Assembly: GCA_039815185.1 (NCBI GenBank)
Contig: JBCBZT010000003.1
Coordinates: forward strand, 1-64,000
DNA length: 64,000 bases
Origin: Cyanobacteria bacterium P01_A01_bin.123
Lineage (GTDB): Bacteria > Cyanobacteriota > Cyanobacteriia > Phormidesmidales > Phormidesmidaceae
Direction: 5' to 3'
Under the pieces are notes generated by a model that made no database searches, was not told the DNA's origin, and saw only the letters and a program-made list of their open reading frames with translations. Below, piece after piece: positions 48,774 through 64,000 of the stretch. The position numbers and the translations under genes were made by a program. Every line of letters begins with the position of its first letter. Positions within the stretch are counted from its first letter, which is position 1.

Positions 48774-49067
48774 ATGAAAACACTTGAGGAAATCAAACAA
48801 TGGTTTGTACAGCATAAATCAGTATTGCAAGAAAACTACAAAGTCAGAGAGCTAGGAATTTTTGGTTCGTACATTCGACAAGAACAGACAGAAACGAGTG
48901 ATATTGACGTGCTGGTAGAATTTTCCGAAACACCAAGCTTGTTGAAGTTTGTCAATTTAGAGAACTATCTCAGCGACAACTTAAGCGTCAAGGTCGATCT
49001 CGTGCATAAAAGTGGTTTAAAACCCCGCATAGGTGAACGGATCTTGTCAGAGGTTGTCTATTTGTGA
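48774..49067 (+). CDS. Minimal nucleotidyltransferase (MNT) antitoxin
   Basis: [26 protein letters not shown]. Confidence 0.92.
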
Positions 49068-49411
49068 CTAAAAGAAATTCAGAAGATTATTTGAAAGATA
49101 TTTTGGATGCCATTGCTGCCATTGAGAAATTTACGGCAGATGTTGAATTTGGAGCGTTCTCACAGAACCTAGAGAAAGTTTTCGCAGTTTCCAAAGCGAT
49201 TGAGATTATTGGTGAAGCCGTTAAGCGAATACCAGATTCTGTCAGAGGCCAATATCCTGATATTCCTTGGCGAGATATTGCTGGTATGCGGGATAAACTG
49301 ATTCACGATTATTTCAACGCAGATGTAGCCATTATCTGGCAAGCGGTTCAAGAAGATATTCCACAATTACGAGTTATGGTCACTAGGGTTCTGGAAGATT
49401 TGAAACACTAG
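49064..49411 (+). CDS. HEPN/DUF86 ribonuclease toxin
   Basis: [23 protein letters not shown] (RxxxxH-x-Y); GTGA overlap with the MNT gene. Confidence 0.92.
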
Positions 49412-52344
49412 GCCATCTGTCGGGCAATCAACTTAGCAAACAATCCCGGCTCCGCCGCTAGCGTCTCAAAATTGCCCTGCTGCACCACATGCCCATTCTC
49501 CAACACATAAATCCGATCGGCATTGCGAATCGTGCTGAGCCGATGGGCTACTACTAAGCGGGTGACCTGCAATTCATCTAAACTCTTGCTGACAATTGCT
49601 TGGGTGCGATTATCCAAGGCGCTGGTGGCTTCGTCTAGCAGCAAGATTCGGGGTTTTAGCGCCAACGCGCGGGCAATAATCAATCGCTGCCGTTGCCCCC
49701 CCGACAAGTTGCCGCCGCCTTCACTAATCACCGTGTGCAGCTTCATCGGCATGGCCTTCAGGTCATCGGCCAATCCCGAGCGCTCCGCTGCAATCCAGGC
49801 GTCTTCTAAAGAAATTAACGCCCCGCCCGCGATGTTTTCAAAGATTGACCCGGCGCTGATGCGACCATTTTGTAGCACGACGCCCAACTGCCGCCGCACT
49901 GCCGACACATCCAAACCCGCTAAATCTTGCCCATCAAAGTAGACTGACCCGGTGATCGGCGTTTCAAACCCCAACAACAATCGAAAAACGGTGGATTTGC
50001 CTGAGCCAGAGGGGCCGACTAGGGCAATGAATTCTCCGGGTTTGGCTTCAATCGAGACCTGATTCAGAATCAATGGACCATCGTCACGGTAGCGAAAACT
50101 CACTTGTTCGACTTTGATATGACCGGTTAGCCGTCCTGGGTCAGCTTTGTCTCGGGTGACTTCAGGCTCTGCAATGAGAATGGGCCGCGATCGCTGCCAC
50201 AGGGGGATCACATCCAGCACTTCTAGCAGGGTGAGGCTGAGGCTAGTAGCCCCCCCGATGAACGTGCCGTAGGCCACGCTAAAGGCGATAAACATGCCTG
50301 CAGTAAAGCCAGAATTGCCATCGCCAATTAACGTACTGGCTAACCAAAATAAAGCCACCGTCGTCAGGGTTGGCATCAGTGTGTTGAACACGCTGACGCC
50401 GTCTTCTAACCGCTGGGTACTGCGCACTAAGCGCAACTGTTGGCTATACTTGTGTCCCCAGTGCGCAAAGGCGCGGGTTTCGGCCCCGGCGACGCGCAGC
50501 TTGGGCACCCCGTTGATTAACTGCACCAGCAACCCGTTGATTTCGCCTTCAAGCTGCATCAGGGGACGGTGCGTGCGAATTAACAAGACCCCGGTCACGG
50601 TAGTCACGGTAATGACAATCAGGGCGACGATCAGCGCCAACACTGCCAAAGATGCACTGTAATAAAACAGCAGACCCAAGTTCAGTAGAGAAAACAGCCC
50701 TACAAATATTGATTGCAGGGTATTGCCGCTCAGCCTGCGGCGAATGGCGCTAATCGCCGACACCCGCGAGTTCAAATCGCCAATGGAGTAGTCTCGGAAA
50801 AAGGCCGTGCGGAGTTGCAGCAATCGGTCCCACACTGCCGCCTGTAGGGTGGCGTCAGAGGCCGTTTCAATGCGCATGGAGGCGATCGCTTGGGCGAGCT
50901 GAAACGCGGTTTGACCAAAGGCTGCGGCCAACAAGCCAATGCCAATTTGCACCAGCAGACTGGCGTTGCCGTAGGGTACGGCTTCATCGATTAGCACTGC
51001 TGTGGCCTGGGGCACCACCATGCCCATGACTGTTGCCGCCACCCCGGTCGCCAGAATGGCGAGCATGTCCTTTTGCCGACCGCGAAAGGCAAACCCCAGT
51101 AGCGTCAAAACGTTCAGTTTGCCGGGGGGGAGCGGCGGATAGAACACGAAGGCGAGGGGATCGAGGGTCTGAGCGATGGCCAGATCGATAGGTACGCGAG
51201 GGGGGCGATCGCCGTTGTTGCCGACCGCTTTGGGATCAAACAGCTCATAGGCCTTAGCACTGACGGGTAACAGGGCTACCGGATGGCGATCGCCCCGGGT
51301 ATAGGCTAAAATTGGCCCCCCGTCTTGGGTCCACCACTGGCCCCGCAGCAGTACGCGTCGCAGCCGCAGTTGAGAGGCCCGCGCGATCGCTTCCAAAGGC
51401 TCTTTCAAGCGTTCTAAGTTTTCAGACCGGGCCGGGGGTTCGATGGTGACCCCCATAGCTCGACCCACAGCCCCTGCCGCCATCAACAATGGCCCATCTT
51501 CGGCGCGAAATGGCAAGTCATCGGCCTGTAAGACTGCGGCCAAATCCTGCACTGTAGTTTGGGTGGCTTGCTGATCTAGCTCCTGTCTGGCCTCAAACCG
51601 TCGCCGCTCTACCTCAGTGGCTTTGGCTTCGAGTTGGATCAGCTGCTGCAAGAAATACCGATGGAACTGGGCCACCCCTTTGATCAAAATTTTGCGGTTT
51701 TTGACCTCAAAGGTATTGCGGGCGTAAAACTCAATGTCGTCTTCGGCTTGAAAAAAGGCGCGATCGCCCACTGGAAAACACCCCAACTCCGACGTCATCG
51801 AAAACTGGGCATCTCCCATCCACTGTGCCTGACCCTGCTGCATCCGAATCCACAGCACTTGGTGATGATCGGGACGACAGCTTTGTCCCGGTAGCAGCGA
51901 CAAATAGTGGATGTCTGGTACAATCGCATCCGTTTTCACCGCTTTGGGAAACTGTGGCCAGCCCTCGACCTGATTGAACCGCTGCAGCCAATCATCAACG
52001 AGTTGCTTCAGGGTATTGAGATCAGGGTCAGCCCCCTCTTCTAACGAAAGCGGACGATAAACAATCTCCGTTGGTTCTAGCGGCACCGCCATCAATCCGC
52101 CAAACGCTGCCTTTGAACCAGATGGCTGGCACTGTTCTTCCACGCCGAATAAGGCGTCACCCGTGTCAACCGTGAACAAATACCGCCGCGCTCCAACGGG
52201 TTGACCGTCTGCCATCGGTGTTGCAAAGACCGCCAGTGACCCTGAGACAATCTGCCACATGGCCTGGGGATGATTCAGTACCAATGGCTGGTGGGCCTGG
52301 ATTTTGAACTGTTGGATGGTTTCGGTGGCTAGGGATGGGGTCAT
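49408..52344 (-). CDS. NHLP bacteriocin-system ABC transporter permease/ATPase subunit
   Basis: [49 protein letters not shown]. Confidence 0.93.
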
Positions 52345-54671
52345 GCTTGCGCCTCCTGCAAAGAACCGCCTTCACTGCGAATCAGTTGGGCATAGGCACC
52401 GGGTTGTTGCCATAGATCATCATGGGTGCCGCGTTGCACCACCTTGCCATACTCCAAGACGATAATTTCGTCGCAGTCGCGGATAGTGCTGAGGCGGTGG
52501 GCCACGATTAAACACGTACATCCCCGTCGCCGCAGATTTTGGTCAATCACTTTTTCGGTTTCGGTGTCTAGGGCGCTGGTGGCTTCATCCATGATTAAGA
52601 TGCTGGGGGTATTCACCAGCGATCGCGCGATTTCCAATCGCTGCCGTTGACCGCCACTCAGGTTGGTTGCTCCCTCCAACAGCGGCGCATCGTAGCCCCC
52701 CGGCATGGCTAAAATCACATCTTCAATCAGAGCATCCTGACAGGCCCGCCGCACCCGATCCTCTGGAATGGTGGTATCCCACAGGGTCAAATTGTCGCGC
52801 ACCGTCCCCTCAAACATCAAAATATCCTGTTCTACCACCGCCAGCGAATTGGTTATTACTGCCCGCGGAATTTGCTGACGCGGGATGCCGTCAAACAAAA
52901 TTTCCCCCGACCAAGCCGGGTACAGCCCTGCCACTACCTTCGCCAGCGTCGATTTACCTGAACCGCTACCGCCCACCAACGCCACCCGTTGTCCCGGACG
53001 AATCGACAAATTAAAATCTTCAATCAGCGGTGCATCCAGCGGGCTATAGCCGTAGTTGATATGGCGCAACTCAATTGCCCCCGCCAACTTCGGTGATGCG
53101 AATTGGATTAGCGCAGGTTCAGCCACACCATTTCTGTCTGCGTGCCGTCCATTACCATTCGCCGATGGGCTGGCTGTTCCCCCCTGATCCTTTTCCTGTG
53201 GAGCGCCGCGATTAATCGCGTCGCTCCGATGTTGTTCTCCCAAATCATCCACCGGATTTTCCAACACGTCATCCAATCGGCGCAGATTACCTTGCAGGTT
53301 TTGTAGCGTACCGCCAAAGCGCACGAGGCGATTCACCGGGCCTTGAAAGCTGCCCATCAGCAACTGAAAGGCCACTAACATGCCGATCGTGAGACTGCCG
53401 TTGATCACGCGCCAACCGCCAATCACCAGCAGCGAAAGGGACATCAGTGCCGTTAAAAGTGACGGTAAAATCCCCATTAGACGGTTGATCAACCCCAGCG
53501 ACTGTTGAGCGTTGACGGCTTTGGTATAGTAGCCTGCCCAACGACCAAAAAAATCTGATTCTAGCCCCGACGCCTTTAAGGTTTCCATGCTTTGTAGACC
53601 CGAAATGGCCACCCCAGACACCTTGCCGTACTCTTGGGCCAAACGCAGGTTGGCATCAACCCGCTGCCGCGAAACCCACTGCAACGTCGCCACATTTACC
53701 CCAGCAAAGGTAATCACGATCAACGTCAGCAGCCAGTCGTACTGGGCCATGGCGATCGCATAAAAAACGACCATCACACTGCTAATCATGGTGCGGGTCA
53801 ATCGCCCTGACAGCACATCCGCAACGTCGTCATTGAGCCCCACCCGACTGCTAATTTCCCCAGCAAAGCGTTGGGCATAAAAGGTCACGGGCAACCGCAG
53901 GACATGCCACACAAAGCGACTGGCCATACCCACGGCAAGTTTGATTTTGAGCGCCCGCAGATAGCGCAGCTGCAGCAGCGTCAATAAGGCTTGCAGGACA
54001 ACGGTAACCAACAACCCCAGCAGGATGTAAGGCAACCAGTCGAGGCGGGCTTCGAGCAAAATGCGATCGATAAAAATTTGGGTAAAGGCGGGCATCACCA
54101 AATTGGGGAACACCAGCAAAAAACCAGCCAGCACGCAAAACAATAGTGCGCCAGTTGACCCCTTGAGCCGCTGTGTCAAGGACGTCACAACGCTAGTGGT
54201 TTGGCCCCCCTTAGTGAACATTTCCCCCGGTTCAAAGGTGAGGGCGATGCCGGTGTAACCTTCGTCAAACTCGCTGTAGGTGACGCCCCGTGGCCCCACA
54301 GCCGGATCGTTTAAGTAAACGCGATCGCGACCAAATCCCTCCACCACCAAAAAGTGATTGAAGTGCCAAAACACGATAAACGGGGGTGGCAGTTGTTGCA
54401 GCGCGTCTAAGGATTTTTTGAACCCCTTGGCGGCTAAACCGTAGTTACGGGCGGCCTTGAGCACATTAGCGGCGGTTACCCCATCCCGAGAAACACCGCA
54501 AGCCTGGCGCAATTCTGCCAGGGGAACCTGCTTGTCGAAATGTCCTAGGATGCTGCCCAGGGCAGCAGCCCCACATTCAACCGCCTCCATTTGTAGAACG
54601 GTGGGTGTTTTGGCGCGTTTAGGCGATCGCGTTTGGGTTGCTGGTTTTGCTTCAGTCACCATAGGCTCCAC
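52341..54671 (-). CDS. NHLP family peptidase-containing ABC transporter (C39 peptidase/permease/ATPase)
   Basis: QMEAVECGAAAL (catalytic Cys), [35 protein letters not shown]. Confidence 0.96.
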   Translation of the reverse strand: MEPMVTEAKPATQTRSPKRAKTPTVLQMEAVECGAAALGSILGHFDKQVPLAELRQACGVSRDGVTAANVLKAARNYGLAAKGFKKSLDALQQLPPPFIVFWHFNHFLVVEGFGRDRVYLNDPAVGPRGVTYSEFDEGYTGIALTFEPGEMFTKGGQTTSVVTSLTQRLKGSTGALLFCVLAGFLLVFPNLVMPAFTQIFIDRILLEARLDWLPYILLGLLVTVVLQALLTLLQLRYLRALKIKLAVGMASRFVWHVLRLPVTFYAQRFAGEISSRVGLNDDVADVLSGRLTRTMISSVMVVFYAIAMAQYDWLLTLIVITFAGVNVATLQWVSRQRVDANLRLAQEYGKVSGVAISGLQSMETLKASGLESDFFGRWAGYYTKAVNAQQSLGLINRLMGILPSLLTALMSLSLLVIGGWRVINGSLTIGMLVAFQLLMGSFQGPVNRLVRFGGTLQNLQGNLRRLDDVLENPVDDLGEQHRSDAINRGAPQEKDQGGTASPSANGNGRHADRNGVAEPALIQFASPKLAGAIELRHINYGYSPLDAPLIEDFNLSIRPGQRVALVGGSGSGKSTLAKVVAGLYPAWSGEILFDGIPRQQIPRAVITNSLAVVEQDILMFEGTVRDNLTLWDTTIPEDRVRRACQDALIEDVILAMPGGYDAPLLEGATNLSGGQRQRLEIARSLVNTPSILIMDEATSALDTETEKVIDQNLRRRGCTCLIVAHRLSTIRDCDEIIVLEYGKVVQRGTHDDLWQQPGAYAQLIRSEGGSLQEAQA

Positions 54672-55335: not shown

Positions 55336-56382
55336 TTACAATCCCAACTGTTCTAACATCCAGTTAAACCGCGCTGCCCCTTGGGAAACCTGCTGGAGAT
55401 CATCGAGATCCAGCTCATCGTCGTCCATGACATTGCTCATCGCTTGAACTCCGCCATTGCTCCCTTGCGTAGCGGTTGACCCTCCAACTAACTGTTCCAT
55501 TACCGTTTGCAGCAGCTCCGAAATTTGCACCGCAATCACGCGGTAAAACCGGGAGGCGAAGCCCATGTCTGTTTGCAGCTTCACCGTCATCGCCGAACGG
55601 GGGATGGTAAACACCAGCGAGTCTCCTAAACTCCGAATGGTGACGGGCATCGGACGAGAATCTAAGAACGATATAATTCCTGGTAGCCCCCCCTTAGAAA
55701 TCTCAGCAAAAACTTGATAATTGCGCGATCGCTTCTCCAAACTGATGAAGCACATGGACAGGGGGTTACAGTAACTATCGGGCACCGCGATAGAAAAGCG
55801 CCCGTCAAGAACCAGATGCAGCGCATCCACCGGACGCCCCACTTGCAATAGCACTCGGTCGGCAGATAACTTTTCCACCTTGCCTGCGCTAATCAACCAG
55901 TCCACATCACTGTCGCGCAGCTCGCTAAAGATAAACAGCGCCTCTTTGACGGCATGGGCTTTACCTAAGTTCAGCTTGTCAGACATTTCAAACATGCTGC
56001 GTAGGCGTTCTGACAGCATCACCGCGATCGCCCGATAGAAGTGAGCCGCAAAGGTCATATCTTCGGCTAACTTAGTCGTCAGCAACCCTTTTGGAATGGT
56101 AATCACCTGGGAGGGTTGAACTGCTTTCACCATCCCGAGTGAGGGTAGGTCGAACAAAGGCGCCTCGCCAAAAATTTCCCCCCGGTTAATGGTGGTCAGG
56201 GGGCGATCGCCACTATCCCCTTGAAACAGGGTTACCCCGCCCTCTAACAGTACATAAATGGCATCCCAAGGATCGTTGGGGCGTAGCATCACTTGCTCAG
56301 CCGATACGGTATCGTGCTGTCCAGTGGTGACGAGCCAGTCGAGGTCAGTATTAGTCAACTCACGCAACAGAACATCTGCCAT
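55336..56382 (-). CDS. Tandem cyclic-nucleotide-binding-like domain protein of the NHLP export operon
   Basis: Internal duplication ELTNTDLDWL / ELRDSDVDWL and FAAHFYRAIA / FASRFYRVIA; GEIFGE. Confidence 0.87.
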   Translation of the reverse strand: MADVLLRELTNTDLDWLVTTGQHDTVSAEQVMLRPNDPWDAIYVLLEGGVTLFQGDSGDRPLTTINRGEIFGEAPLFDLPSLGMVKAVQPSQVITIPKGLLTTKLAEDMTFAAHFYRAIAVMLSERLRSMFEMSDKLNLGKAHAVKEALFIFSELRDSDVDWLISAGKVEKLSADRVLLQVGRPVDALHLVLDGRFSIAVPDSYCNPLSMCFISLEKRSRNYQVFAEISKGGLPGIISFLDSRPMPVTIRSLGDSLVFTIPRSAMTVKLQTDMGFASRFYRVIAVQISELLQTVMEQLVGGSTATQGSNGGVQAMSNVMDDDELDLDDLQQVSQGAARFNWMLEQLGL

Positions 56383-56779
56383 AGGGTCTAAGGGAAGTTA
56401 GGTTGGAACATCCATGATGCAGTTTTAGTATAAATCCGAGTTATGAAGAATCAGATTTTGCTGGGCTTTAGTTTCCAGACAACGTTGATCTAGAGAACCA
56501 ATTGCTGGTTTTTGATGCTTTTAGCCGTGAACCTATCAAGTCAAAAGGATTTAGTCAATTCATAAAAACTTCAGTTCGTCTTCTGCTACTTATGATCAAC
56601 CCTTTAAGAACCAGGGGTTACTGACGTTTCATCAGCTAAGGTTATGCCGGGATTCAATCCGCAGCCATAAATTAGTCTCTAAACAAAAATTAATTTACTG
56701 CTCAGATTCAAGAGTTGATTATTCCTTTTGGAGGCGCTAGGGTGGAGCTGTCAACATTCAACTTGAATGGGGTTTAACC

Positions 56780-56968
56780 ATGGGTATGGAAGATATCAAG
56801 AAAACAGCTGAGGACATCAAAGAAGCTGTCTCCGACGGTGAACTGTCTGTAGATGAACTCAAGGAAGTTGCTGGTGGTGTCAATCTTGACCAGCTCCGTC
56901 GCGAAAACCTAGATAAAGATGCTTCTAACTTGGATGAAATCCGCAGCGAAAATCTTGACAAGGACTAG
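56780..56968 (+). CDS. Double-glycine-leader peptide precursor with tandem-repeat core
   Basis: ELSVDELKEVAGG leader end; core VNLDQLRRENLDKDASNLDEIRSENLDKD; divergent from the C39 exporter operon. Confidence 0.88.
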   Translation: MGMEDIKKTAEDIKEAVSDGELSVDELKEVAGGVNLDQLRRENLDKDASNLDEIRSENLDKD

Positions 56969-57206: not shown

Positions 57207-57240
57207 AGAGCCCCTAGCGCTTAGCTGGGGGCTTTTTATT
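57207..57240 (+). terminator. Rho-independent terminator downstream of the precursor gene
   Basis: agagcccctagc-gctta-gctgggggcttt followed by ttatt. Confidence 0.8.
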
Positions 57241-61188: not shown

Positions 61189-62526
61189 ATGGTTGTGGCG
61201 ATCCCCTCTGCTGAGGCAATTACTGATTGGGTTGAATCCTTAAGGGCTCAGGATGTCAAATATGTGCGTTTTGAACTGCCCGATTTGCATGGGGTTTCTC
61301 GGCTGAAAGTCATCCCTATTGCTAAGGTCGAGGGCTATGCCCGCAAAGGGCTTAACTTTTATGGCGGCACCCTGGCTTTAGATACGGCGTCATCGGTGGT
61401 GTCTTCATCGGGATACCACGAAGAACGCAAATACCAAGACCATCTGCTGTTTCCTGATATCAATAGCTGCACTGCTGTGCCCTGGATGGACAGCACCGTA
61501 AAGGTGGTGTGTGATGCCTACTGGACTCCGGAAGAGCCCTTGTTGGGGGCTCCCCGCTACGTGCTGCAATCATTGCTCGACACGGCTCAGCAAATGGGCT
61601 TTGACGTGATGATGGGGCACGAGTTTGAGTTTTACTTGCTTGATCCGGAGACCCATAAACCGCTGTTTGACGGGTTACACATTTTCAATCACATCCGCAA
61701 TCAATATGTGCCTGAGATTGGTCAGATGCTTGACTATCTGCAAGCCGCAGGCATAGACGTGATTACCCATAACTGTGAGTATGCGCCCTCTCAATTTGAG
61801 ATTAACTACGGGCCAGGTATAGGTATTCAGGGGGCAGATAAGGCATTTACGTTTAAGAATGCGGTGAAAGAAATTGCCCACCATCTGGGCTATCACGCCA
61901 GTTTTATGTCAAAACCATTTGCGGGCTTGGCAGGCTGCTGCTGCCATTTCCACCTCAGTCTTTGGCAAGACGGCACGAATGTTTTTTTAGACCCCAGCGA
62001 TCGCGATGGTTTGTCCTCAACCGCTAAGTCTTTCATTCAAGGCATTCTTGACCATGCCCCAGCGATGCTACCGCTCATTGGGCCAACACCGAACTGTTAT
62101 CGACGGCTAAAGCCCCATACCTTCGCCCCGTCCAATATTAGCTGGGGCATTGAAGATCGCACCGCGATGGTGCGGGTGAAGGCCACTAAAGACGAGGGTA
62201 CCCATTTGGAAATGCGGGCAGGTTCAGGATTGAGTAATCCCTACCTGAGCGCAGCGGCAACCCTGGCAGCGGGGCTACTGGGCCTTAAGGAACAGCGAGA
62301 ACTACAGCCGATGGTCAACGGGCCCAGTGAAGAAGATCCCAGTTTGCTGCCCTTCCCGAAAACGTTAGACGCGGCCTTAGAAGCGCTGACCGCAGATGCA
62401 TCAATGCAAGAGATGCTGGGGGCCGAGTTTTGCAAATTGTTCTCGACCGTCAAGGAATTTGAACTGGCGCGCTTCCATGACCACATTACAGATTGGGAAG
62501 TGGCGGAGTATTTGGAGGTGTATTAG
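61189..62526 (+). CDS. Glutamine synthetase-like (probable gamma-glutamyl-amine ligase) protein
   Basis: GHEFEFYL, EYAPSQFEIN, ASFMSKP, HFHLSL, NCYRRL, WGIEDRTAMVR; lacks the FDGSS of true GS (has FYGGT). Confidence 0.88.
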   Translation: MVVAIPSAEAITDWVESLRAQDVKYVRFELPDLHGVSRLKVIPIAKVEGYARKGLNFYGGTLALDTASSVVSSSGYHEERKYQDHLLFPDINSCTAVPWMDSTVKVVCDAYWTPEEPLLGAPRYVLQSLLDTAQQMGFDVMMGHEFEFYLLDPETHKPLFDGLHIFNHIRNQYVPEIGQMLDYLQAAGIDVITHNCEYAPSQFEINYGPGIGIQGADKAFTFKNAVKEIAHHLGYHASFMSKPFAGLAGCCCHFHLSLWQDGTNVFLDPSDRDGLSSTAKSFIQGILDHAPAMLPLIGPTPNCYRRLKPHTFAPSNISWGIEDRTAMVRVKATKDEGTHLEMRAGSGLSNPYLSAAATLAAGLLGLKEQRELQPMVNGPSEEDPSLLPFPKTLDAALEALTADASMQEMLGAEFCKLFSTVKEFELARFHDHITDWEVAEYLEVY

Positions 62527-62667
62527 GGAGGAAGTGGTGATGTGCTGTCGGTTTAAACCTTGTCCACATCAACTTAATGGGTTCTCCCTGACGCTAATTA
62601 GATGTGGCCTAACAACGGCAGTGATAGCAAAAAACTGAGTGGTTTATCAGGAGCTTAAGAATTGAGC

Positions 62668-63573
62668 ATGATGACAACAAAAACTCAAGGGTCCATTACA
62701 TCTGAGCAGGCTGAACAGTTTCACCGCGACGGGTTTTTGGTCGTTGAGAATCTCATCGAGCCAGATTTGGTAGCGCGTTTAGTGGCGCGGTTTGATCCCT
62801 TGTTCGCAGGGGAATTTGAAACCGGGGTTTATCCTGACGAGTGGCACTGGAATCCGTACCTGGGCAAGCCGGGGGCTGCGGGGCAGATGACGGGGGCATG
62901 GAAGTGCGATCACACGGTGGCCTCAGCCATGCTATCGGCCAAAATGGGTCAAATAGCAGCAGTTTTAGAAGGTTGGTCAGGGGCACGGCTGCTAGCAGAT
63001 GGTCTTTGGCAAAAACCCTATGGGGCTAGGGAAACAACCCTGCACCAAGACTCCATGTACATCAATTACCACACGCCACCGGGCGTGATTACCTGCTGGA
63101 TTGCTCTTAGCCATGCCGTTGCTGGGGCCAGTACGATTGAGTACGCGCGGGGATCCCATCGATGGAAGCTGTCTGAGGCCGTCCCTGAATTTCATAATCA
63201 GGACAAAAGTTATCTGGCTGAAATGGAGCGGGCGGCTAAGTTGGCAGGGGTGGCGCAACCTGAAGTCGTGCAGCTCGACATTCCTCCTGGGAGTGGTGTC
63301 TTTCACCACGGCAATACCTGGCACGGTTCCGGCCAAAACACAATGAACGTTGTTCGCCGCAGCATGGTGGTGGCCTATGTGCCTGCTGAAGCCCGGTTTA
63401 AGCCTTTTGGTGCCTATGTCCCAGGGGGCTACATCGCAGGCAAATACCGTCGCCATGGCGATGACACGATGGATGAAAGCTTCTTCCCAATTGTTTGGCG
63501 CGAGGACGGTTATCGTAGCCCGTTCCTGGCGGATTATTGCGACAACGCCCAGACATCCCATTTGGCTATCTAA
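62668..63573 (+). CDS. Phytanoyl-CoA dioxygenase (PhyH) family Fe(II)/2OG enzyme
   Basis: FHRDGFLVVE, LHQD (HxD), TCWIAL, GSH, FHHGNTWHGSGQN...RR. Confidence 0.92.
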   Translation: MMTTKTQGSITSEQAEQFHRDGFLVVENLIEPDLVARLVARFDPLFAGEFETGVYPDEWHWNPYLGKPGAAGQMTGAWKCDHTVASAMLSAKMGQIAAVLEGWSGARLLADGLWQKPYGARETTLHQDSMYINYHTPPGVITCWIALSHAVAGASTIEYARGSHRWKLSEAVPEFHNQDKSYLAEMERAAKLAGVAQPEVVQLDIPPGSGVFHHGNTWHGSGQNTMNVVRRSMVVAYVPAEARFKPFGAYVPGGYIAGKYRRHGDDTMDESFFPIVWREDGYRSPFLADYCDNAQTSHLAI

Positions 63574-63587
63574 TTTCTGAATATCCT

Positions 63588-64000
63588 ATGCCTGCTTTGC
63601 AAACCCCTATCTCCCTGACATTGGCGCAAATTGCCCAATTTCAATCCCAGGGCTATCTCATCCTTGAAAACCTGTTGACGCCTGCTCAGGTTGACCAAAT
63701 CAGCGATCGCTTCGATCCCCTTTTTGACACCCAATTTGAAACCGGCATCTATCCCGATGAATGGTATGGTCGCCCTGGCCTTAGCCAGCCTAATGCAACT
63801 CGCCAGATGACTGGGCTGTGGCGCTGCGATCGCACCCTAGCCAGCTATACCCTCTCTCGCGAAATTGCCCGCCTCAATGCTACCCTCATGGGCTGGGACG
63901 GCGCTCGTTACGCGTTTGATGCCTGCTGGATCAAGCCCCCTGATGCCCCAGAAGTTTCGTTTCATCGCAACAATACTTACGTCTCTAGCGTTGCCCCGGC
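63588..64000 (+). CDS. Second PhyH-family dioxygenase paralogue (3'-truncated by the window; absent from the ORF track)
   Basis: Manual translation MPALQTPISLTLAQIAQFQSQGYLILENLL...RFDPLFDTQFETGIYPDEW...WIKPPDAPEVSFHRNN, colinear with the upstream gene. Confidence 0.9.
   Translation, partial: MPALQTPISLTLAQIAQFQSQGYLILENLLTPAQVDQISDRFDPLFDTQFETGIYPDEWYGRPGLSQPNATRQMTGLWRCDRTLASYTLSREIARLNATLMGWDGARYAFDACWIKPPDAPEVSFHRNNTYVSSVAP

Follow-up and report, generated by a model that had tools for sequence, protein, structure and literature searches.

Does a small gene with a double-glycine (GG) leader that lies beside bacteriocin-type export machinery encode an antibiotic precursor, or a peptide of another kind? 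The question is raised by a 62-aa gene in the window, by which we mean the whole stretch of 64,000 nucleotides analysed here (Cyanobacteria bacterium P01_A01_bin.123, contig JBCBZT010000003.1, positions 1 to 64,000). A first-pass annotation, made from the letters of the window, had proposed an uncharacterised class of exported charged peptide and had offered several roles for it: a signal, a metal-binding or self-assembling peptide, or a multi-core substrate for modifying enzymes encoded elsewhere.

A conserved precursor beside a known type of exporter

Translation of the ORF yields what had been described: a 33-aa leader ending in ELSVDELKEVAGG and a 29-aa core that contains two 13-mers and a total of four NLD motifs (Table 1). 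The 13-mers have 10 residues in common, and our recount agrees that nine of these ten are encoded by different codons. From this the annotation had argued for an old repeat kept by selection on the peptide, and the homologues bear the argument out. In their alignment the core is nearly invariant and the N-terminus of the leader is variable; compared with 37 homologous cores, 398 codons are identical, 448 synonymous, and 227 non-synonymous, and this roughly twofold excess of synonymous over non-synonymous changes indicates purifying selection on the core. The protein database supplied 15 homologues of 55-72 aa from 20 candidates (14 GG precursors and, in one case, part of a repeat protein). At genome level, 51 loci for the precursor or the repeat were found in Nodosilinea, Halomicronema, and related Leptolyngbyaceae records. 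The precursor gene is conserved and is not a chance ORF. No Pfam or NCBIfam family scores above its cut-off, in agreement with the proposed uncharacterised class.

The composition of the core required some correction. Cys and Thr are lacking, as had been stated, and Met is lacking as well, but two Ser are present, which are not conserved. The lack of aromatic residues is true of the window's core and is a strain-specific quirk rather than a family trait, since position 1 of the unit is usually Phe (97 of 133 GG-type units). The core is acidic and very hydrophilic (GRAVY -1.46). The end of the leader fits the pattern L-S-x-x-E-L-x-x-V-x-G-G, and the leader as a whole gives weak matches, all below cut-off, to the CCRG-2, Nif11-like, and CTB models; when tested as an NHLP/Nif11 leader, the precursor scored 16.9 bits on TIGR03798 (cut-off 32.3) and did not match TIGR03793.

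Table 1. Features of the precursor locus and of the candidate regulatory operon; positions without a prefix refer to the window
Feature	Position	Strand	Basis or remark
GG-leader precursor gene, 62 aa	56780..56968	+	translation, homologues, genome loci
Leader, 33 aa, double-glycine cleavage motif at end	56780..56878	+	sequence
Core, 29 aa, net charge -4, 3426.7 Da monoisotopic if unmodified	56879..56965	+	
Repeat unit 1	56882..56920	+	
Repeat unit 2	56927..56965	+	
Terminator-like hairpin 3' of precursor	57207..57235	+	weak; 1 found versus 0.9 expected in shuffles
Candidate regulator site, 11-bp-period direct repeat, weak copy	56559..56574	-	divergent intergenic region
TIGR03896 double cNMP-binding-domain protein	55336..56382	-	271.7 bits, cut-off 161
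Short HlyD-like adaptor, 204 aa	54720..55334	-	N-terminus, one TM helix, beta-barrel; no lipoyl/alpha-hairpin part
NHLM C39 peptidase/permease/ATPase (TIGR03796)	52341..54671	-	above cut-off, catalytic residues intact
NHLM permease/ATPase without peptidase (TIGR03797)	49408..52344	-	989 bits, cut-off 709
Sensor kinase and NblR-like regulator operon	G000:C94:174717-176777 (L164), L197-L206		opposite arsS or VTT genes; NblR-like regulator at G000:C94:176103-176777

The annotation had also named the precursor a substrate of a divergently encoded C39 exporter. This assignment is supported: the protein exceeds the TIGR03796 cut-off, carries Cys33, His106, and Asp122, and is the sole such peptidase in the genome, the only other C39-like domain being without the catalytic Cys motif. 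The exporter gene is divergent but not adjacent, as the genes for the TIGR03896 cNMP-domain protein and the short adaptor intervene. The three-gene NHLM export cassette (TIGR03794/03796/03797) has been described before (Haft et al., 2010; PMC2887384), and the arrangement in the window (a short C39 ABC protein, a peptidase-less ABC protein, an HlyD-like gene, and a double CAP_ED protein, all next to a GG precursor) is that of the group V clusters (Wang et al., 2011; PMC3140520). The locus differs from these systems in its short leader, which falls below the NHLP/Nif11 cut-offs, in a core without heterocyclisable residues, in a hairpin-less adaptor, and in the recurrence of the core unit behind Sec-type signals.

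A GG precursor is present in 42 of the 51 loci, and in 25 of these 42 it is divergent from a TIGR03896 gene, with the short adaptor visible in 24; the linkage of homologues to NHLM-type exporters thus holds, although kinship inflates neighbour counts across loci. The other 17 are not beside a cNMP gene, and seven of the 17 have less than 1.6 kb of upstream sequence. The TIGR03896 gene itself is accessory: it is missing from some lineages that retain the rest and from all 22 members of genus g164. Chlorite dismutase lies 3' of the precursor in 10 of the 51 loci, and in 11 (6 + 5) the flanking genes encode DM13 proteins. Elsewhere in the window, an MNT-HEPN type toxin-antitoxin pair lies directly 3' of the exporter operon (48774-49411; both members below cut-off and not conserved in related loci), and a glutamine-synthetase-like gene followed by two phytanoyl-CoA-dioxygenase-like genes occupies 61189-64000 and is unrelated to the precursor.

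One repeat unit in two export formats

Within this genome, the 12-residue unit (hereafter type A) is found in three GG precursors, which carry one, two, and three cassettes, and in six genes with a Sec-type signal peptide ending in A-x-A (read by eye) and three to nine units. Every cassette of the multi-cassette precursors bears its own GG recognition sequence; across the GG precursors, 29 of 45 have one cassette, 15 have two, and one has three. Sec-type forms overall contain 3-13 units and no GG sites. The GG and Sec repeat genes of this genome have no neighbour gene in common. Their unit profiles are near-identical (133 GG versus 125 Sec units), a comparison that is partly circular because the units were picked by pattern. 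One Sec-type gene (G000:C76:73845-74266) is frameshifted after two units, which could be an assembly error within the repeat. Some Sec-type polymers (L045, L051-L057) have a spacer ending in QVKG after each two units; it is placed where GG forms have the recognition sequence and may be a decayed or alternative processing site. Parallels exist both for one core type on two routes and for several cores per precursor: class IIa bacteriocins are exported by either GG or Sec leaders, and cyanobactin PatE and yeast alpha-factor are multi-cassette precursors. Unlike in these cases, a single genome here combines both routes under one promoter motif, and the peptide does not resemble an antimicrobial.

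The type-A unit occurs in three of the 401 genomes of a phylum sample, all three from the window's family; within this family, 63 of 173 genomes carry it. Of the 95 representatives obtained in an exhaustive profile search, 93 are at most 201 aa long and have no other domain; the remaining two long matches were considered as fusions of the repeat to another domain and rejected as unrelated repeats. No Pfam or NCBIfam family above its cut-off describes the repeat; TolB_N in one paralogue and a 15-residue leader model in another do exceed their cut-offs, but neither describes it. The ESM Atlas returned unnamed cyanobacterial clusters only, and no PDB sequence matched the repeats with an E-value below 0.38. 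In the text of the open-licence literature searched, the cargo family does not appear, and none of three core words occurs in the text of the supplements to Wang et al. (2011), which give coordinates rather than sequences, the alignment figure of that paper being an image. The repeat marks an undescribed family, confined to one cyanobacterial family among the genomes searched. While the exporter type has been known since 2010/2011, the cargo family is absent from the literature searched.

A sister unit, type B, was found 5' of TIGR03896 genes. Twenty such stretches, mostly chosen from genomes without a type-A match, contained 14 diverged GG precursors of two units, one CTB-like precursor, and in five cases (two of them short stretches) nothing. 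The type-B profile matches 75 of the 173 family genomes and nearly complements type A, overlapping with it only in this genome, G410, and G520. Type B likewise comes in both formats, as GG two-unit peptides and as signal-peptide polymers; its 63 homologues are unnamed or called 'hypothetical protein', their median length is 59 aa and median charge -4.5, and no Met occurs in the 63 cores. Sequence comparison gives little support for homology between the types (HHalign probability 3%, E 0.015), the case for which rests on position, architecture, and the pattern hydrophobic-x3-Arg-x-acid-x-Leu-Asp. The single type-B gene of this genome is on a 9-kb contig and may be contamination (assembly contamination 5.99%). 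A type-B member may already be catalogued anonymously, given that the size (58 aa) and charge (-4.5) of the group V 'NHLP' precursor S7335_2492 fit this type (Wang et al., 2011, Table S3; PMC3140520). The core also varies at the exporter locus (L092, L105, L191), where cores of an RFxxARxxNLDS type and others of one and a half units occur, as does a second GG peptide that is unrelated. A search of the phylum sample for RFDxARxxNLxK as a third type of unit, which had no positive control, gave 0 of the 401 genomes.

Adaptor, promoter repeat and candidate regulator

The adaptor of the cassette matches TIGR03794 only at positions 1-55 and 292-420 (144 versus a cut-off of 156.2), and the middle part is missing in all 21 aligned sequences. 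Its structure model consists of a TM helix and a beta-barrel; fold matches to BesA, HlyD, EmrA, and MacA are weak and non-significant, and a PDB sequence search with the adaptor returned nothing. The short form goes with the cargo. In 13 chosen cassettes, the five with CTB-like cargo all have adaptors of 489-494 aa, whereas the other eight have adaptors of 160-221 aa, and seven of these eight have repeat cargo in the stretch read. In genus g164, where TIGR03896 is absent, a short adaptor lies less than 1 kb from a type-B match in five of five genomes. Cassettes of the CTB family bacteriocins (NF038167) also have TIGR03896 and an NHLM exporter, in the same genus, and differ in their longer, Gly/Ser-rich cargo and full-length adaptor; on NF038167 the window's precursor reaches 15.4 bits (cut-off 32) and the multi-cassette paralogues 28.8-29.3 bits, in the leader region only. 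Genus g165 (L184, L186-L189) has a paralogous TIGR03896/NHLM cassette with a conserved 91-aa CTB-like precursor and two conserved upstream genes that have no NCBIfam match at 1e-12.

The adaptor hairpin underpins recruitment of the exit duct (PMC3807786). The association of a hairpin-less adaptor with repeat cargo, and of a full adaptor with CTB-like cargo, suggests periplasmic delivery, which would be the same destination as that of most Sec cargo. BesA lacks the hairpin and yet works in a tripartite pump (PMC3807786), an exception that makes periplasm-only export uncertain; we consider such delivery of the GG-derived peptide somewhat more probable than its opposite. The Sec-type signal peptides, which were read by eye, could also route their cargo to the thylakoid lumen.

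The repeat genes are preceded by a direct repeat in which TGA-N8-TGA spacing is found in 30 of 52 upstream regions, against 9-18 for other spacings. Tandem repeats of 11 bp are typical of OmpR-family sites. Scored with a matrix built from other genomes, each of the 10 repeat genes here ranks within the top 1.6% of the 7763 upstream regions of this genome. The two formats also predict each other: with a Sec-trained matrix, all three GG genes of this genome reach at least the 95th percentile, and with a GG-trained matrix six of seven of its Sec genes and seven of nine type-B Sec genes do so, one Sec gene of this genome reaching only the 76th. Exporter-linked GG promoters attain the 95th percentile in 10 of 26 cases, and type-B GG promoters in 6-8 of 30. 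The copy in the window lies 205 bp from the ATG of the peptide gene and 176 bp from that of the cNMP gene, and is at the 98.8th percentile with the repeat-trained matrix and at the 92nd with a matrix trained on kinase promoters. Overall, the site is strong before the Sec genes and before GG paralogues that stand alone, and weak before the gene in the window.

These kinase promoters belong to an operon of a sensor kinase and an NblR-like regulator, which the direct repeat precedes in 10 of the 11 genomes examined; opposite the operon lies an arsS-like gene in seven, a VTT gene in three, and another gene in one. HMM checks confirmed ArsS for one genome and gave the regulator 288.7 on NF045914 (cut-off 300). 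The matrix from kinase-operon promoters alone ranks eight of the 10 repeat genes at or above the 98th percentile (the window's gene at the 92nd, as above), and its top class includes SelD-like, DUF547, VTT, DUF3326, and MerA-like genes. Single-site matches are near chance genome-wide (4.2% of upstream regions) and the arsS gene of this genome has no site, so that the regulon is a lead only; as such, the kinase/NblR-like pair is a candidate regulator of the repeat genes and of an arsenosugar/selenium-associated gene set. One invariant Cys and two sites that bear Met are found in the sensor domain and would suit the sensing of oxidants or soft metals; E. coli HprSR provides a precedent for oxidant sensing (PMC9805139). 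RpaA was considered as the regulator but is not supported: the promoters of kaiB and two group-2 sigma genes lack the site, and the published sequences that matched look different. Literature on control by NblR, CopR/NrsR, or slr0303-0305 yielded nothing usable. A strong copy of the motif also lies upstream of a gene for an 81-aa lipoprotein of ADPCA repeats without a family match (G000:C15:80124-80369, L168).

What the peptide may do

We give even chances to the reading in which the gene encodes a periplasmic stress peptide that is co-regulated and left unmodified, and not the precursor of an antibiotic. Activation of the sensor kinase and the NblR-like, OmpR-family regulator would cause precursors and polymers to be made together. 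Cleavage of each cassette at GG would fall to the neighbouring C39 domain, and transfer of unmodified peptides of 29-31 residues into the periplasm to the ABC pair, while Sec would carry the polymers, so that free peptides and multi-repeat paralogues could do the same periplasmic job. What each unit (hydrophobic-x-x-x-Arg-x-acid-x-Leu-Asp) binds may be damaged proteins, envelope polymers, cations, or the like, and the copy number of the unit would raise the dose. That the core is unmodified and equivalent to the Sec forms is probable. The multiplication of the unit by gene copies, cassettes, and repeats suggests that large amounts of the product are needed. We tentatively propose that it acts stoichiometrically, as an abundant protectant against envelope stress, the stress most likely being an oxidant or a soft metal. 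That residues of the unit are near-invariant speaks for a specific partner and against generic protection. A fuller scenario is possible, if doubtful: loss of the adaptor hairpin would have turned a bacteriocin-type exporter into a cutter that serves the inner membrane only, Sec would deliver the polymers, and one oxidant- or metal-sensing two-component system would control both together with the arsS/selD/VTT/DUF547 set.

A partial precedent is MrpX, a periplasmic repeat protein of an oxidant response, which consists of 20% Met and is sacrificially oxidised (Melnyk et al., 2015; PMC4436054). Like the Sec paralogues, which score 23.7-33.6 bits on the MXKDX model TIGR02953 (cut-off 41), MrpX is a small charged repeat protein with a signal peptide, and it is induced by a dedicated stress regulator. 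The present repeats differ in having neither Met nor Cys, so that they cannot scavenge oxidants in the manner of MrpX, and in using the GG route as well; the regulator of MrpX is an ECF sigma factor, whereas the candidate here is a two-component system.

Given the tight conservation of the core and the cassette format, the main rival is a role in signalling, with the core as a peptide signal or feedback ligand for a sensor, possibly the co-regulated kinase, and made in many copies like a pheromone. Precursors with one to three cassettes, each with its GG recognition sequence, would suit such a role, as would a near-invariant core, lineage types A and B that exclude each other, and the NblR-like and NarL-like regulator genes that flank type-B precursors in genus g168. 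However, no receptor is conserved next to type-A loci, where the PAS kinase of the window is not conserved either, the Sec forms have no GG sites, and the types are common to whole genera rather than strain-specific. We regard a signal as unlikely.

Still less probable is self-assembly of the units, as helical bundles or fibres that would form part of the sheath or of a biofilm matrix. The precedent is EbfG1-4/PteB of Synechococcus elongatus, where small GG-motif proteins exported by a C39 transporter are needed for biofilms and thus have a non-antibiotic role (Parnasa et al., 2016; PMC4997328). Consistent with a matrix component are the number of genes, which reaches 10 in one genome, unit lengths of 15, 18, and 29 that would fit helical periodicities, and an AlphaFold model of one Sec paralogue, which is a single long confident helix. 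Against it, the pTM of this model is 0.49 and the hydrophobic moment at 100 degrees is low (0.05-0.19), so that the repeats are not classic amphipathic helices, and the adaptor lacks the hairpin needed for the usual crossing of the outer membrane. The EbfG cores are moreover 6-7 kDa in size and described as without homologues in other cyanobacteria (PMC4997328), whereas the cores reported here are 3.4-kDa tandem repeats conserved across genera.

A calcium or metal buffer, with the repeat as a degenerate EF-hand, appears improbable. N-L-D-K-D followed by V-D-F-D-E resembles the consensus of an EF loop with a deletion, and two 57-aa secreted peptides of this genome, each with a single EF-hand-like loop (G000:C8:33623-33796 and C76:66975-67148; one just below the PF13202 cut-off), have signal peptides of the kind seen in the Sec paralogues and carry the promoter motif too. 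The likeness of the repeats to these peptides is, however, non-significant (as high a score is reached by 54 of 1772 and by 339 of 1843 shuffles), and the third acidic ligand is missing from type-B units. The 12-residue loop with ligands at positions 1, 3, 5, and 12 that marks EF-hand proteins is not found in the repeats, and no EF-hand family matches them.

The suggestion of the annotation that the core is a multi-core substrate for lactam or Asn/Asp chemistry is not supported. A RiPP precursor modified in trans (by Lys-Asp/Glu lactam formation, Ser dehydration, or Asn/Asp chemistry) would find support in the invariant Lys, Asn, and Arg of type-A units and in the MvdD-like ATP-grasp and LanM proteins on contig C70 of this genome. 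Both enzymes, which were among those that the annotation had recommended searching for, lie in a separate cluster with precursors of its own. Clustering of the neighbours of the 51 loci revealed no modifying enzyme common to at least three of them, and the core lacks Cys and Thr, whereas an NHLP/Nif11-type product would call for a core rich in Cys, Ser, and Thr with a linked YcaO or LanM. MvdD-type ATP-grasp (PF21068) occurs in 8 of 173 family genomes and in two of the 63 with type-A repeats, LanM in 9 of 173 and four of 63, and no co-encoded or co-occurring MvdC/MvdD ligase pattern of the graspetide (microviridin) type was seen. With the Ser residues not conserved and the unit present in leaderless Sec proteins, we consider modification in trans very improbable. 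The cluster on C70 (G000:C70:2500-23200, L140 and L141; C70:45458-47902) is RiPP-like in its own right. Its GG precursors include multi-cassette ones with NHNET cores, which reach 481 aa, and five short ones whose cores are acidic and of the [KR]PKED type; two heme-oxygenase-like (PF14518) proteins, a TPR protein, the MvdD-like ATP-grasp (below cut-off), and a GRAS-domain protein that follows an NHNET leader in a fusion are also encoded there, with LanM further on. The search of the genome located no C39 exporter that belongs to this cluster.

An unmodified class II bacteriocin or microcin is the least credible alternative: a GG leader with an NHLM exporter is annotated as bacteriocin machinery (PMC2887384, PMC3140520), but the core is acidic and very hydrophilic, no immunity-like neighbour is conserved across the 51 loci, and the cores are conserved across genera, unlike the cyanobacterial bacteriocin precursors of Wang et al. 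(2011; PMC3140520), which have very little core conservation.

Hundreds of cyanobacterial GG precursors have been annotated as bacteriocins, and a function is known for almost none of them. The family described here provides a testable counter-case: its core is fixed, two routes of export coexist in one genome, the adaptor lacks the part for coupling to the outer membrane exactly where repeat cargo occurs, and a candidate regulator has a predicted site. If the fuller scenario outlined above is true, the family would constitute a new class of non-antibiotic, unmodified GG peptides that act in envelope stress and, if periplasm-only export holds, also an example of a type I peptide exporter that has been repurposed. 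Beyond the peptides themselves, the promoter motif points to a regulator for the poorly understood genes associated with arsS.
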